From the IMG/VR virus record IMGVR_UViG_3300028048_000042: 64,000 nucleotides of DNA; one strand, given 5' to 3'. The notes below the pieces were generated by a model. That model did not search any database. It had not been told where the DNA came from and saw nothing but the letters and a program-made list of their open reading frames with translations. This document shows positions 20,880 through 26,279 of this stretch, piece after piece. The position numbers and the translations under genes are program-made. Each line of letters starts with the position of its first letter. Position 1 is the first letter of the stretch. Origin of the DNA: a virus. Its lineage: Duplodnaviria > Caudoviricetes.

Positions 20880-23444
20880 ATGGTTCAGTTGGACTTAGAT
20901 AATGTCTATTTGAAGATTACAAATTTAGATAAAGACCCTGAAATGAAACTTTGGAATGAATTAAGTTTTCAGGTTCAGGTTTATGGTCAGCAAGAAATTC
21001 ATTATAGACATTTGTATAATCGAAAAACGAAAAAAACTTATGCAGGTTTGATGGATTATGTGGTTGATTTTTTCAAAAAAGAAGAAATTGATTATCAATT
21101 GATTGACCACCGCACCAAACATGAGAGTAATGCAGATTTTAGTTTGGTTGATTATATAGATAAAGAAAACAACATTGAATTAAAACTTCGTCCTTATCAA
21201 CAGGAAATTGTTGATAATTGTCGTGAGCGTGAAGTAATTCAGGCAGCGACAGGAGCAGGCAAGGCGTTACCGCTGTATACTCCTATTCTTACACCTGATG
21301 GATGGAAAGCAATGGAAGATATTCACGTTGGCGATACTGTATATGATGAAGACGGTAAAGAAACAAAAGTCATTGGTGAATTCCCACAGGGGAAACTCGA
21401 AGTTTGGGAATTGGAATTTGATGACGGAAATACTATTGAATGCAGTAAAGACCATTTGTGGAAATTTTGCATAGTCAACAAAAAGTCTCGTGAGAAAAGC
21501 GAATGGTTTGAAAAAACAACAGAAGAAATGCTTAAATTGTTAAAAGACAATGAGCTGTTTATCCCTGTTGTTAAACCAATTGAAATGTCTAAGAAAAATC
21601 TTCCATATCACCCATATTTGGCAGGTCAAATTTTCGCAGAAAAAGAATTGAAATTGGGAAAATATGCCAATCGCTTTTATGAAATGACTAAGGATTTTTC
21701 ACAAGAAGAATTGGATAAGCTGTACGCATTTGATAACTTTAAACAATATGTGTGGTCAAGCATTGCAGATAGACAAGAATTCTTAAAAGGATTAACCGAA
21801 ATCATTGATGGTAAAAGTGTTGCAGAGCGTTGGGACTGTGATTTTGAAACCATAATGGAATTTAAATTTTCAAAAGCTGAAAAAACCGAATTTGTATATA
21901 GAATTTTTTGCAGTTTAGGATTTAGCCCTGTGTGGGACAAAGATGATTTGTCTTTCAGCGTTGGTTTTATGGACGATGATTTTAATGTTGAATATAACAA
22001 TAACGAGCAAATGTTATATTATCATATTGAAAATATTTATTCAATTAACCATAAAACAGAAATGAAATGTATTGCAGTGGATAGTCCGAAGAAAACATAT
22101 GTTTGTCAGAATTACATTGTAACGCATAATACTTTAATGATGGCTGCAATTATTGCAAAATTCAATGTAAAACCTGTGTTTGTTTTTGCTGATAAGATTG
22201 GACTTTGTATGCAATTAAAGCAGGAAATTGAAAAATTCTTAGGTGTAGAAGTTGGACTTGTTGGTGATGGTATTGAAGAATACAAAGACATTACAGTGGT
22301 ATCTTTGCAATCGGCAAAAGAGGAACAAATTCAAAAAGCAAAAATGATTTTGTTTGACGAATGCTTACCACCAAAAGCCAAAGTTATGCTTGCTGATGGA
22401 ACATATAGTGAAATTAGCAGGATTGTAACGAGGTTAAAAAAAGGTGAACAAATTAGGGTCATGTCTTATAATGTTGACACAAAACAATTTGAACCAAAAT
22501 CTGTTATTAATTATGGAAGAATGCAAAAAAAAGACAGAAAAATGGTTAGAATTAACATTAGACAGGCAGATGGTACATTAAAAACCGTTACTTGTACTGA
22601 CAATCATAAAATTTGGGTTGAAAGTTTAAAACAATATATTCCTGCCAAAGATTTGGTGAGTGGGCAAAAGGTTGTTTCTGTACAAAGAAAATACAAATGT
22701 GAAGAGTGTGAGAAAGTTTTTGATTCACATTTGGTTTTGGGTGCTCACAAGTCTTCTGCTCACGGAGAACTTAACAAAAAAAAGAAGTTTAAATGTGAAG
22801 TGTGTGGGGAAGAATTGTTTTGTAGTTTACCAACATATAAAGCCCATGTAAAATCTCATGATGTGGAATATCGTCAACTTCGAGGTAAACATATCAGTAT
22901 TGCAAAAAAGATTTTTTACGCTGATGAAGAACGTTCAAAATTTGCAAGAGAATATATGAGTGAGTATATGAAACAAAACAATCCAATGGATAGGCAGGAT
23001 GTCATTGAAAAAATGGTTCGTTCACGCAAAGAATATTTTGATAATATGACAGATGAAGAATACAGTAATTTTGTAAGAAATTTTATCAATGCTTCTCCTA
23101 CTTCTTTTAAAGAACCAACGCACCCTGAACGAGTGATTATGAGTTTAAATATCCCAAATTTAGAGTATAATGGTTCTGTTGAAGATTCAAAAACATATAG
23201 ATTTAAGAAAGACAATTCTTTAAAAAAATCTGCAACACCTGATTTTATCTACTATGACCCTATTACAGGTGTCGAAAAGTTTGTTGAGTGCTTCGGTGAA
23301 CATTGGCATAAAAAAGGTGAAGATATTGCATTGGAAATGGCTTATAAAAATAATGGATATGAAGCTCTCGTGTTGTGGGAATATGAGCCGTTAGAAAAAC
23401 AGATTGAAAAACTTGAAAAGTTTTTGGGGGTGACAATTAGATGA
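20880..23444 (+). CDS. SF2 (UvsW-like) helicase, N-terminal part, with cis intein and N-half of split intein fused to an endonuclease
   Basis: Q-motif LRPYQ, Walker A ATGAGK|T, Walker B ILFDE|. Confidence 0.9.
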   Translation: MVQLDLDNVYLKITNLDKDPEMKLWNELSFQVQVYGQQEIHYRHLYNRKTKKTYAGLMDYVVDFFKKEEIDYQLIDHRTKHESNADFSLVDYIDKENNIELKLRPYQQEIVDNCREREVIQAATGAGKALPLYTPILTPDGWKAMEDIHVGDTVYDEDGKETKVIGEFPQGKLEVWELEFDDGNTIECSKDHLWKFCIVNKKSREKSEWFEKTTEEMLKLLKDNELFIPVVKPIEMSKKNLPYHPYLAGQIFAEKELKLGKYANRFYEMTKDFSQEELDKLYAFDNFKQYVWSSIADRQEFLKGLTEIIDGKSVAERWDCDFETIMEFKFSKAEKTEFVYRIFCSLGFSPVWDKDDLSFSVGFMDDDFNVEYNNNEQMLYYHIENIYSINHKTEMKCIAVDSPKKTYVCQNYIVTHNTLMMAAIIAKFNVKPVFVFADKIGLCMQLKQEIEKFLGVEVGLVGDGIEEYKDITVVSLQSAKEEQIQKAKMILFDECLPPKAKVMLADGTYSEISRIVTRLKKGEQIRVMSYNVDTKQFEPKSVINYGRMQKKDRKMVRINIRQADGTLKTVTCTDNHKIWVESLKQYIPAKDLVSGQKVVSVQRKYKCEECEKVFDSHLVLGAHKSSAHGELNKKKKFKCEVCGEELFCSLPTYKAHVKSHDVEYRQLRGKHISIAKKIFYADEERSKFAREYMSEYMKQNNPMDRQDVIEKMVRSRKEYFDNMTDEEYSNFVRNFINASPTSFKEPTHPERVIMSLNIPNLEYNGSVEDSKTYRFKKDNSLKKSATPDFIYYDPITGVEKFVECFGEHWHKKGEDIALEMAYKNNGYEALVLWEYEPLEKQIEKLEKFLGVTIR
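21264..22130 (+). mobile_element. Class 3 intein (289 aa) in Walker A, with degenerate LAGLIDADG remnants
   Basis: Starts ALPLYTPILTPDGW; block B CSKDHLW; block F MKCIAVD; ends VTHN/T. Confidence 0.9.
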
Positions 23445-23575
23445 TTTATTGTGAGAGCTTAGAAGGTGTAGTTGAATCTGTTGAATATATTGAAAATGAT
23501 AAAACTCAATTTGTTTATGATTTGACTGTTGCAGATAACCATAATTTTGTTACAGAAGATGTTGTTGTGTCTAAT
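22362..23575 (+). mobile_element. Split intein in DExH box: IntN (22362-~22680) + C2H2 Zn fingers + endonuclease, stop; IntC 23441-23575
   Basis: DE|CLPPKAKVMLADG...TCTDNHKIW; second ORF VYDLTVADNHNF...VVSN|CHH. Confidence 0.88.
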
Positions 23576-24397
23576 TGTCATCATATACCTTCTGCGACTT
23601 GCGTTGACGTTGCCAATAAATGTAAGGATGCATATTATCGCATTGGTGTATCTGCAACCCCTTGGCGTGATGCAGGTGATGAAATGCTTATTGAAGCCTG
23701 TCTTGCAAGAAAAAAACAAGGTGTAAGTATCAATGCAAGTAAGTTGATTGAACTTGGCTATCTTGTTAAACCTGATATTTATTTTGTGCCTATTAAACAG
23801 GTGTTTAAAGGTAAAAATTACAATGCCCTTTATAATCAGGCGATTGTTGAAAATAATACAAGAAATAAAATTATTTACAAAATTGCTGAACAGATGTATA
23901 ATCGTGATAAACACATTCTTATCTTGTTTAAAACAATTAAACACGGTGAAGAAATGCAAAAACAATTGTTGAAACGTCTTGGAGAAAAGGTTACGCCAAT
24001 CCGTGTAATTAATCCTAAAAATGGTAAAGAAACAACAATTCGTGTAAAGAATGTAGAAATTCTTTCAGGTGTTGATGATTCATTGCGCCGTACTGCTGTA
24101 TTTGAAGCAGTAAAACAGGGAGTGTGTCGTTGTCTTTTGGCTTCTACTATTGCAGATGAAGGACTGGATTTACCAATTCTTGATACATTGATTCTTGCAG
24201 GTGGTGGAAAATCATCTACACGAGCTTTTCAACGTGTAGGTCGTGTAATTCGCTTGTATAAAGATAAAACTAAGGCTATAGTTTTTGATTTTATTGATTA
24301 TACACCCATGTTGCGTAGACATTCACGAGCAAGACAAAAATATTATGAAACAGAACCGTTGTGGGATTTACATAAATTTGTTGTAAATCCTGATTGA
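23441..24397 (+). CDS. IntC + SF2 helicase C-terminal part
   Basis: CHH, SATP (motif III), EGLDLP (V), QRVGRVIR (VI); ATGA overlap with GGGGGTGA SD. Confidence 0.9.
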   Translation: MIYCESLEGVVESVEYIENDKTQFVYDLTVADNHNFVTEDVVVSNCHHIPSATCVDVANKCKDAYYRIGVSATPWRDAGDEMLIEACLARKKQGVSINASKLIELGYLVKPDIYFVPIKQVFKGKNYNALYNQAIVENNTRNKIIYKIAEQMYNRDKHILILFKTIKHGEEMQKQLLKRLGEKVTPIRVINPKNGKETTIRVKNVEILSGVDDSLRRTAVFEAVKQGVCRCLLASTIADEGLDLPILDTLILAGGGKSSTRAFQRVGRVIRLYKDKTKAIVFDFIDYTPMLRRHSRARQKYYETEPLWDLHKFVVNPD

Positions 24398-25019: not shown

Positions 25020-26279
25020 ATGGCTGAAAGCGTATTTTGTGGTTTGTGCCATAAAGAATTTAAATCCGCTGTAGCTATGAAAAACCACATTTGTAAAGAA
25101 TCAGAAAGTAGACATGAGTTGATGGCTCATGTCTATAATTCTGATATTAAAATCAAGTGCGGAGAAATTAATGATTATATTGTAAAATATAGTGAATGGT
25201 TTCAAAGAGTAAATGAGATTAATTTGGAACAGACTTGCGTAGACTTTGTTGATAAAATCAAAGAAGATATTCAGAAAGAAAAAGAAGAAAAAGAATTTCA
25301 AAAAGCTGAAGAACGTAGACAAAGAGAATATCAAAAACAATTAGAGCAAATGCAACGTCTAAAAGACCTTGAAGAAGAACGAAAGCTTCGTAAAAAGGTT
25401 GAAAGTGCTCATTTTAAACAAATGGATGAAAAAGACCGCCCAAAAGCATTGCTTGATGAATATTACACTTTGACAGGTGGGTATTGTTATCAATATATGA
25501 TTGAAATGCAGTTAGTTAAAGGTTTGTATACAAAACATAATTTTGATTCCGAAACAGCGCATTTCATTATTCGTTATATGGCAAAAATGAGAATCCCTTT
25601 AAAAAACATCAATTATAAACTTGATGATGCTATGAAATTCAAAAAAGGATTGGAAGATGCTAAAGTAGAAGGTACAATTCCGTTTTTAATTAAATATTTT
25701 TATCAAAAGACGAAACAAAAACGAAATAATAAACTTTTTGTTCGTGAAATTGACCGTTTGGAATCTAGTCAGTCTTCAAATGATTTAACTTATGAACAGT
25801 TGAAACGAGTTCTTGATGGAATGATTGCTAAAGGTGAAAAAAATATTGCATTTTTTGATACATATGTATCTCAATTTGCATTTAAACAGGCAGAGTCTGC
25901 TGATAATGACCCTGTACATAATTTCACAGATGAACGAGAAGTTAAAGAAAATGTAAAACAGATTGTTTTGGGTAATTTGACGTTAGATGATGTTAATTCC
26001 AATATTCGTCAACAGTGTGCAGTAAAATTAAAACAGATTTATCTTCAAGGCAAGTTCAATAATAATTACAATTATTTTGAATGGGCATATAAAGCAAAAC
26101 TTCCCTTAGATAAAGAATTATATTCTTTTGGTATGGAACATAGTGAAGAACGTAATAGTCGCTTTAAAACATGGTATTTAAAGGCAAAAATGAGTGGAAA
26201 CGCAACAATGTTTGAAAAATATCAGAAAGCGAAACAAAAATTTGATAATTGGGTAGCTTCGTGTAAATATAATTCGTAA
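25020..26279 (+). CDS. Hypothetical protein with N-terminal C2H2-like Zn finger; possible replication initiator
   Basis: CGLC...H...H; immediately upstream of loader and DnaB (function inferred from position only). Confidence 0.55.
   Translation: MAESVFCGLCHKEFKSAVAMKNHICKESESRHELMAHVYNSDIKIKCGEINDYIVKYSEWFQRVNEINLEQTCVDFVDKIKEDIQKEKEEKEFQKAEERRQREYQKQLEQMQRLKDLEEERKLRKKVESAHFKQMDEKDRPKALLDEYYTLTGGYCYQYMIEMQLVKGLYTKHNFDSETAHFIIRYMAKMRIPLKNINYKLDDAMKFKKGLEDAKVEGTIPFLIKYFYQKTKQKRNNKLFVREIDRLESSQSSNDLTYEQLKRVLDGMIAKGEKNIAFFDTYVSQFAFKQAESADNDPVHNFTDEREVKENVKQIVLGNLTLDDVNSNIRQQCAVKLKQIYLQGKFNNNYNYFEWAYKAKLPLDKELYSFGMEHSEERNSRFKTWYLKAKMSGNATMFEKYQKAKQKFDNWVASCKYNS

Follow-up and report, generated by a model that had tools for sequence, protein, structure and literature searches.

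Can an intein be broken after its homing endonuclease, leaving the enzyme fused to the N-terminal half, and can such an arrangement last? The question is raised by a giant-phage helicase locus in the window, the whole 64,000-nt stretch of viral DNA analyzed here. ORF1 (20880-23444, + strand, 854 aa) encodes, in this order, the helicase N-part, an intein (intein 1), 77 extein residues, the N-terminal half of a second intein (IntN), two C2H2 zinc fingers, a helical linker and a Vsr-like (EDxHD) nuclease. ORF2 (23441-24397, + strand, 318 aa) carries the C-terminal intein half (IntC) and the helicase C-part. A preliminary description of the locus had proposed this layout of ORFs, intein halves, fingers and nuclease, with the ORF1 stop at 23444, and had placed the fingers and nuclease in frame on IntN. 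The sequence bears out both points, as the ORF1 frame stays open across IntN and the nuclease, with no stop or spacer between them and no separate nuclease start seen. The features are as follows, with a slash in a motif marking the splice point.

20880-21263 (+): helicase N-extein part a, residues 1-128, with Walker A GAGK at its end; 54% identity to phage G gp221, Pfam ResIII
21264-22130 (+): intein 1, residues 129-417, Ala1 ... THN/T, contiguous, in Walker A; missing from close relatives, Hint-type Pfam matches
22131-22361 (+): helicase N-extein part b, residues 418-494, ending ...MILFDE; alignment with phage G gp221 and the intein-free L002 helicase
22362-22685 (+): IntN, residues 495-602, Cys1, block B T573-x-x-H576; Pfam Intein_splicing and PT-HINT
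22686-22859 (+): two classical C2H2 zinc fingers, C607-H628 and C639-H660; Pfam zf-C2H2, PDB phmmer match to Aart
22860-23114 (+): helical linker with an invariant NNP motif, residues 661-745; alignment A6, helices in the AF2 model
23115-23444 (+): Vsr-like/EDxHD nuclease, residues 746-854, and the ORF1 stop TGA (23442-23444); profile, AF2 model, structure alignment
23426-23433 (+): Shine-Dalgarno-like GGGGGTGA for ORF2, 7 nt before the ATG; read from the sequence
23441-23575 (+): IntC, 45 aa, blocks F/G, ending VVSN, start codon overlapping the ORF1 stop (ATGA); Pfam Intein_splicing positions 119-155, alignment
23576-24397 (+): helicase C-extein, CHHIPS..., motifs III-VI, 273 aa; 58% identity to phage G gp223 and 83% to the L002 helicase, Pfam Helicase_C

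The limits of intein 1 (residues 129-417) were set by intein-free relatives: P0004/L003 and L002, both close, lack it and read GAGKT. With these limits the helicase length given earlier (128+77+273 = 478 aa) is correctly summed, and the need for one cis- and one trans-splicing event to produce it holds structurally.

Is the second intein equipped to splice? Its first residue is Cys495 (TGC, 22362-22364), directly after ...MILFDE, and IntN is 108 aa long; the intein-free L002 helicase is contiguous at this N-terminal nucleophile position and reads FDECHHVP. Block B is present (T573-D-N-H576), and the Cys, Thr and His of IntN are nearly invariant in alignment A6. Blocks F and G are present in IntC (...NHNF...VVSN/C), with terminal Asn and +1 Cys, and in alignment A7, which includes IntC from 15 relatives, H34, N45 and H47 never vary and C46 hardly at all. 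The extein plus IntN is 47% identical to phage G gp221, whose ORF ends after IntN. These hallmarks and the relatives support what was first described as a naturally split intein at the DE/CH box, with a 45-aa IntC ending VVSN/CHH. The penultimate His of block G is missing; the Ser in its place, also remarked on earlier, is seen in A7 to be a trait of a whole sub-lineage and not a defect, being found in the window, L003, L008, P0021 and the nearest mini-inteins. His is retained in phage G and the terminase cases discussed below. This His is dispensable in some inteins, and its replacement by Ser may slow Asn cyclization.

A model of the complex between IntN-nuclease and IntC scored 0.81, while the best of 3 controls scored 0.00. 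Of 80 solved complexes, 58 attained that mark, as did 2 of 110 mismatched pairs. At least 95% of contacts recur across runs, with a partner pLDDT of at least 79, and contacts are restricted to IntN and the beginning of finger 1, IntC being placed on IntN. Split-intein complexes have already been solved structurally, and this score may reflect likeness to them rather than lend independent support.

What has been added to IntN? Both fingers fit the classical C2H2 spacing (C-x2-4-C-x12-H-x3-5-H) with a hydrophobic core, finger 1 (C607/C610/H623/H628) being C-x2-C-x12-H-x4-H and finger 2 (C639/C642/H656/H660) C-x2-C-x13-H-x3-H. They match Pfam zf-C2H2 with E-values of 1e-4 to 5e-3, the best at 21-23 bits and so under the curated cut-off of 27, and a phmmer search of the PDB matches them to the designed zinc-finger protein Aart (E 4.5e-5). 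Their dN/dS against L003 is 0.09. The linker forms helices in the AF2 model, and its N and P are invariant in A6. Pfam gives no NUMOD match to it; residues 661-745 probably form an additional DNA-binding region, which may be NUMOD-like.

The C-terminal domain belongs with the EDxHD/Vsr family, as seen from profile match, conserved residues and structure model. Profile A3 matches I-Bth0305I (3R3P) with E 1.1e-5 and Vsr with E 1.4e-3. The alignment-based AF2 model has a pLDDT of 90.9 and was the only one used, a single-sequence run on residues 497-854 having reached a pLDDT of 35. VIA-align superposes the nuclease model on 3HRL (Z 8.6, rmsd 2.7, 82 aligned), 3R3P (Z 8.3, rmsd 3.1, 86 aligned) and 1CW0 (Z 7.4, rmsd 2.8, 88 aligned). 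Foldseek against the PDB returned nothing at E <= 0.001, its weak rows all being restriction-endonuclease-like folds, and PHROGs gave no match for the nuclease part. Among 36 family members, E750, P787-D788-F789, E803 and W809-H810 are invariant or nearly so. The Asp of PDF (D788) corresponds to Vsr D51 and H810 to Vsr H69, and E803 is a further acidic residue; the equivalent of I-Bth0305I Asp222 (E814/D815) is assignable by alignment only. In P0021, a contiguous orthologue, WH is replaced by WY, Tyr taking the place of the catalytic His, which indicates that nucleases of this lineage can decay.

Relatives of this helicase present six states at the DE/CH site, all still extant: empty; a contiguous mini-intein; a contiguous intein with a nuclease of this EDxHD/Vsr-like type; classically fractured; tethered, as in the window; and split without a nuclease. 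The site is empty in the 83% identical L002 helicase. P0021 has the contiguous, nuclease-bearing form at this site, and contiguous inteins with this nuclease type are also found in P0014, P0013 and P0022. L011 has a classical fractured helicase gene at the same site; its zinc-finger nuclease belongs to the same nuclease family and is encoded by a free-standing gene. The split without a nuclease is seen in phage G gp221/gp223 and, counting phage G, in about 25 clusters of the helicase family; about 42 clusters have mini-inteins. The tethered layout (IntN-nuclease, stop, overlapping IntC ORF) also occurs in three terminase-like genes. A mirror layout with the nuclease on IntC was considered for P0025/L009 and rejected: the reading frame is lost within a zinc finger that a shift of one base makes whole again, which looks like an indel. 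Megablast with the complete locus yielded no match in the phage collection, and a scan of viral contigs with the IntN-nuclease part gave no relative.

Taken together, the locus holds a real split intein, maintained under purifying selection in every part, in motif II (DECH) of a phage SF2 helicase, with a putative homing endonuclease in frame on IntN; it probably trans-splices, is translationally coupled and homes. We infer the course of events from the gene layout. ORF1 would be made as one chain running from N-extein through intein 1, the second N-extein stretch, IntN, the two C2H2 fingers and the linker to the EDxHD/Vsr-like nuclease, and ORF2 (IntC and C-extein) would be translated from the same mRNA at the overlapping ATG, using the GGGGGTGA Shine-Dalgarno. 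Intein 1 would splice in cis; IntN and IntC would associate as one HINT fold and then trans-splice. The predicted product is the 478-aa helicase with the junction ...FDE-CHHIPS... restored, and the by-product would be IntN-nuclease held non-covalently to IntC, the counterpart of a full-length intein with a nick behind the endonuclease domain. In co-infecting relatives, intein-free alleles are the probable target of the nuclease, and their repair would copy the whole 1.2-kb cassette.

Is the break real? The ATGA at 23441-23444 is common to the ORF1 stop and the ORF2 start, and ORF2 is in the -1 frame relative to ORF1, so that one base inserted exactly at 23441/23442, and only there, would fuse the two. 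The split could on this account be an artefact or a very recent accident, a contiguous nuclease-bearing intein broken by one indel at the nuclease/IntC boundary; the four contiguous inteins with this nuclease type exist to be broken, and an intein of this kind in L009 has a clear indel-type break inside a zinc finger. Such an origin is extremely improbable, and already contradicted, because relatives share the split. P0158, with a 99%-identical protein assembled independently from another sequencing run, again has 854 aa and a 4-nt overlap with the next gene. L003 (80% identity) keeps the ATGA, the 4-nt overlap and the same Shine-Dalgarno-like GGGGGTGA, and in its IntC frame a TAA immediately precedes the ATG. 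In L008 (57% identity) the two ORFs overlap by 11 nt and the one that encodes IntC is in the +1 frame, against -1 in the window, and this difference in frame and overlap implies that the two-ORF state survived independent indels. In the window, TAG (23438-23440) lies immediately 5' of the ATG in the IntC frame, the sole possible fusion position has no homopolymer, and an indel in the T5/G5 run would, as the sequence reads, meet TGA or TAG at once. The preliminary description had argued from the ATGA and Shine-Dalgarno against a sequencing indel and had suggested looking for the same junction in related phages; the argument stands with P0158, L003 and L008, of which L003 has the ATGA itself. 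IntN and IntC are encoded as separate polypeptides, and the split is kept in all three. Between the window and L003, dN/dS is 0.08-0.13 in IntN, fingers, linker, nuclease, IntC and exteins. Programmed -1 frameshifting at the junction was rejected: the sequence lacks a slippery heptamer, and the IntC frame is closed by a stop immediately 5' of the ATG. A scan for promoters did not exceed its shuffled controls, and neither an internal promoter nor an own start for the nuclease was seen, though one may be present.

Granting the break, the helicase halves might function unligated, with the intein halves or other surfaces merely holding them together. One study describes such assembly without splicing for the fractured NrdA of phage Aeh1, whose gene is interrupted by a mobile nuclease gene (Crona et al., 2010; PMC3045599), and the absence of the penultimate His would suit it. 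Here, however, the break separates the Glu of the DECH box from its Cys, within the ATPase active site, and some 150 intein and 250 nuclease residues intervene; all class 1 splicing residues are kept under purifying selection, and the contiguous mini-inteins at the same site must splice for an active helicase. Unligated function is very unlikely for these helicase halves. It is also unlikely that the intein splices while its tethered nuclease no longer homes, having become a fixed, domesticated or decaying passenger, perhaps with a DNA-binding or half-folding role. Nuclease loss is common in the family, judging by the clusters with nuclease-free split inteins and mini-inteins, phage G has no detectable remnant, and the orthologous intein of P0021 has lost its WH. 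Against decay, the dN/dS of fingers, linker and nuclease (0.08-0.10) is as low as that of the helicase itself, the conserved acidic residues and His are intact, and empty targets are still present among close relatives (L002), the condition that keeps a homing nuclease under selection.

The closest known systems are the fractured genes described by Dassa, London, Stoddard, Schueler-Furman and Pietrokovski (Dassa et al., 2009; PMC2677866). As there, a split intein interrupts a phage gene for DNA metabolism at the canonical site of endonuclease insertion, the halves are adjacent on one strand with a Vsr-like homing nuclease coded between them, and the nuclease 3' end overlaps the IntC start (4 nt in the window, 6-69 bp in the published cases). 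In those loci, however, IntN ends in a stop followed by a 27-51-nt non-coding stretch, often with a hairpin, and then a nuclease with its own start (PMC2677866), whereas in the window IntN and nuclease are one polypeptide and there is no free-standing nuclease gene. The comparison with fractured genes made at the outset was apt, the same helicase site having both a classical version (L011) and a contiguous one (P0021). Like I-Bth0305I (Taylor et al., 2011; PMC3239194; PDB 3R3P), the window enzyme has an N-terminal DNA-binding region followed by a C-terminal Vsr-like fold, and it retains the PDF Asp, the acidic residue preceding G-x-x-W-H, and the His; unlike that group I intron enzyme, it sits in an intein half and has C2H2 fingers and a helical NNP region in place of two NUMOD/HTH motifs. 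It shares with canonical full-length inteins the order of blocks A-B, nuclease and blocks F-G, a nuclease expressed only with the host gene, and a predicted excised product equal apart from one missing peptide bond, but differs in the stop/start between nuclease and block F and in having EDxHD, not LAGLIDADG or HNH. Phage G gp221/gp223 (JN638751), annotated only as "DNA helicase," are an orthologous helicase (54-58% identity) in two ORFs with homologous IntN and IntC at the DE/CH site. Unlike the window, phage G has no nuclease, the gap being filled by the 73-aa gp222 and about 100 extra N-terminal residues of gp223, neither of which has detectable similarity to the nuclease.

How did the tethered form arise? 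Two routes to split inteins have been proposed, invasion of a mini-intein by a free-standing nuclease gene or the appearance of a stop codon in a full intein; to our knowledge, both were proposed without in-between forms being described. Such a form, with the nuclease on IntN and a stop/start before IntC, is now on record; it is conserved and subject to selection, and the helicase family to which it belongs shows every neighboring state at the same insertion site. The tethered layout matches a half-completed step IIIa of the Dassa model, or the reverse path (PMC2677866), and could be a fractured full intein or a half-integrated free-standing nuclease gene. To call it an intermediate of intein fracturing, as was first done, is a reasonable reading, but the trees do not settle the direction. 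In the IntN tree split and contiguous forms are interleaved, the starred branches forcing at least about five changes, and the tethered rows sit on short branches adjoining long-branched mini-inteins; monophyly of the tethered forms is neither shown nor rejected (AU p = 0.10). We suggest, tentatively and with some doubt, that the tethered form is a stable, recurrent state and that split and contiguous inteins interconvert often at this site. If so, this helicase family would allow a direct test of split-intein origin, nuclease invasion of a mini-intein versus breakage of a full intein, and loss of the nuclease along with its stop/start could turn split inteins back into mini-inteins.

Fractured genes are already known; what appears new is the in-frame IntN-nuclease fusion, of which we found no description for a natural split intein in the literature searched, chiefly outside subscription journals. 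A 2025 survey states that the split inteins of Dassa et al. (2009) were the only intein setting in which Vsr-like nucleases had been reported, and itself adds antisense Vsr-like nucleases (10.1101/2025.01.02.630785); we found no published report of an in-frame Vsr-like nuclease domain in an intein. The locus shows that Vsr-like nucleases can be such domains. It also points to natural nucleases predicted to read DNA by tandem C2H2 fingers. IntN and IntC are a new natural Cys1/Cys+1 split-intein pair, predicted to splice, for protein ligation work. As a separate observation, the empty L002 allele carries TGATGA-N3-TCATCA centered on the insertion point, the sole hint on site-specific cleavage.

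The gene content of the window, read from sequence, is like that of a large tailed phage, and its replication module is collinear with that of Bacillus phage G, which gives the best match among the phages searched, at 58% protein identity. An SF2 helicase (ResIII/Helicase_C) is encoded by two overlapping ORFs, and the layout set out in the preliminary description was borne out, each detail lying at the coordinates assigned to it.

Parts of the split helicase gene (slashes mark intein borders)
ORF1, 20880-23444, 854 aa: helicase N-part, intein 1, IntN, fingers, linker and nuclease
Helicase N-extein part a, ORF1 residues 1-128
Intein 1, contiguous, inside Walker A, window 21264-22130, ORF1 residues 129-417: 289 aa, Ala1, GAGK/A...THN/T
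Helicase N-extein part b, ORF1 residues 418-494: C-terminal end MILFDE
IntN, ORF1 residues 495-602: first residue Cys, block B T573xxH576
Two classical C2H2 fingers, ORF1 C607-H628 and C639-H660
Helical linker with invariant NNP motif, ORF1, between finger 2 and nuclease domain
Nuclease domain, ORF1 residues 746-854
ORF2, 23441-24397, 318 aa: IntC, then CHHIPS... and the remaining helicase
IntC, first 45 residues of ORF2: blocks F/G, end ...VVSN

The ORF1 stop and ORF2 start share an ATGA, and GGGGGTGA stands 7 nt upstream of the ORF2 start. The borders of intein 1 are confirmed by the close relatives L002 and L003 (protein P0004), both of which lack this intein and read GAGKT. At the same Walker A site, many helicase family members (proteins of 818 aa) carry a LAGLIDADG-type intein.

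The earlier view that the split is genuine and no sequencing indel is upheld by four concurring lines of evidence: the break is real. A TAG directly precedes the ORF2 ATG in the IntC frame, so the frames could be joined only by a one-base insertion at 23441/23442, where there is no homopolymer; the sequence around the junction would leave an artefact almost no room. Another public run yielded a protein (P0158) that matches at 849/854 positions and has the same length of 854 aa, with a 4-nt overlap between its gene and the next. The ATGA junction, proposed as a feature to look for in related phages, recurs in L003 (80% identical; a further sequencing run) together with the same GGGGGTGA, a TAA before the ATG, and the same IntN-finger-nuclease fusion with an identical end point. 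L008 (57% identical) differs in having an 11-nt overlap between its two ORFs, and its IntC frame relative to ORF1 is +1 as opposed to -1 in the window, so the two-ORF state has outlasted independent indels. The same ORF1 architecture is seen, at the protein level, in a fourth lineage (P0159, 60% identity). In contrast to this clean junction, the helicase intein at L009:2052-4563, with the same nuclease type, changes frame partway through a zinc finger; since a one-base shift restores the C2H2 finger, the probable cause is an indel in the assembly or a fresh mutation.

Comparison of the window with L003 gives dN/dS values of 0.08-0.13 in IntN, fingers, linker, nuclease, IntC and C-extein, with synonymous sites near saturation (segment borders were offset by two residues, leaving the result unaffected). 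The nuclease is therefore as strongly constrained as the helicase.

The nuclease is one of the EDxHD/Vsr-like homing endonucleases, a family whose prediction from fractured genes (PMC2677866) preceded its characterisation (PMC3239194). Among 1.84 billion representative proteins searched, 370 relatives were recovered, and alignment of 36 nuclease domains reveals an invariant E750, a P-D-F (787-789), a nearly invariant E803 and a W-H (809-810). The profile matches I-Bth0305I (3R3P) at E 1.1e-5 and Vsr at about 1.4e-3. An AF2 model built with this alignment (pLDDT 90.9) gave no significant match with Foldseek alone; the top structures in VIA-align were 3HRL (Z 8.6), 3R3P (Z 8.3), Bax1 (Z 8.0) and Vsr 1CW0 (Z 7.4). 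Whereas I-Bth0305I binds DNA through a NUMOD/HTH region, C2H2 fingers stand in its place in the window protein. Several free-standing phage proteins (P0005-P0009, P0011, P0016; L011:437-1564) each carry several tandem classical C2H2 fingers and then the same linker and EDxHD nuclease; the P0006 gene separates IntN from IntC in a member of this helicase family. As judged from sequence, such proteins would in effect be natural zinc-finger nucleases. Our literature search brought up no description of homing endonucleases with C2H2 fingers.

A census of the helicase family (120 clusters), combined with the nuclease search, revealed six states of the DE/CH insertion site.

States of the DE/CH site
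1, empty: e.g., L002 (83% identity), reading FDECHHVP
2, contiguous mini-intein: ~150 aa, about 42 clusters
3, contiguous intein holding the finger-linker-nuclease insert seen in the window: P0021, a more distant orthologue, in which Tyr replaces the catalytic His
4, classical fractured gene: L011, in the order IntN, stop, 70-nt spacer bearing the nuclease's own Shine-Dalgarno, free-standing 375-aa multi-finger nuclease gene, 64-nt spacer, IntC
5, tethered form as in the window: four lineages
6, split without nuclease: about 25 clusters, including phage G gp221/gp223

In phage G (JN638751, 4286-6918), a split-intein helicase is encoded in halves by gp221 and gp223, both annotated as ‘DNA helicase’ alone, and the 73-aa gp222 lies between them. 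The annotated start of gp223 may be too far upstream, since about 100 residues ahead of its IntC part resemble nothing known.

The tethered layout is not limited to the helicase. Three terminase-like genes share the order N-extein, IntN, zinc-rich region, linker, nuclease, stop and overlapping IntC ORF (overlaps of 4, 4 and 19 nt). The terminase-like gene at L007:3001-6482 (P0026) has a contiguous mini-intein followed a few residues downstream, at VVVDE/S, by a split intein with a Ser1 nucleophile, cysteine-rich region and tethered nuclease; an ATGA overlap marks the start of its IntC ORF, and the IntC end reads ...LVHN/S.

Among described systems, the fractured genes of Dassa et al. 2009 (PMC2677866) come nearest. 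Their defining feature, a free-standing nuclease gene (stop, 27-51 nt spacer, own start), is absent in the window, although in both the nuclease 3' end overlaps IntC. Step IIIa of their model predicts such a form en route to an in-frame nuclease domain (PMC2677866). According to a 2025 survey, earlier reports of Vsr-like nucleases with inteins were confined to the Dassa split context (10.1101/2025.01.02.630785), and our literature search, of incomplete coverage, found no description of a natural split intein with a nuclease in frame on IntN.

Is the tethered form an intermediate of fracturing, as first suggested? The form does exist at a site with neighbouring states, but its direction is not settled by the IntN trees. 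These place tethered forms and contiguous mini-inteins together in one well-supported clade, with tethered P0160 sister to a mini-intein group (support 98/98); the AU test (p = 0.10) does not reject a monophyletic tethered group, and split and contiguous forms are interleaved throughout. The tethered state could be old in the clade, mini-inteins having arisen through deletion of the nuclease plus stop/start; movement of the nuclease between inteins would fit equally, and neither direction is preferred because the alignments behind the trees have about 110-150 columns and homing obscures the signal.

Most likely, a single mRNA would be translated into both ORFs, ORF2 being coupled to ORF1. Intein 1 would be cis-spliced first, and IntN and IntC would then assemble and trans-splice to give the 478-aa helicase, the excised product being a full intein minus one peptide bond. 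When IntN-nuclease and IntC were modelled as a complex, the score was 0.81 (best of 3 controls 0.00), a mark reached by 58/80 solved complexes and 2/110 mismatched pairs; at least 95% of contacts are shared between runs, with partner pLDDT of at least 79. Confident contacts of IntC all fall within IntN and the first finger, so the nuclease tail is not predicted to block assembly. Split-intein complexes are already among solved structures, and the pass may therefore reflect likeness to these.

In the empty allele at L002:6009-6023, the intein insertion point lies at the centre of a perfect inverted repeat (6+6), TGATGA-GTG-TCATCA; in its left arm, the occupied alleles of the window and L003 carry GAC where L002 has GAT. 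This repeat may be the target core of the nuclease or a mere consequence of the D-E-C-H-H codons, and as these partly dictate it, it is only a hint. A dimeric EDxHD enzyme such as I-Bth0305I would be well matched to a palindromic core. Downstream of the helicase, the gene at 25020-26279 encodes a single N-terminal C2H2-like finger (CGLCHKEF...H) without a nuclease domain, and counterparts are kept in L002, L003 and phage G (gp224).
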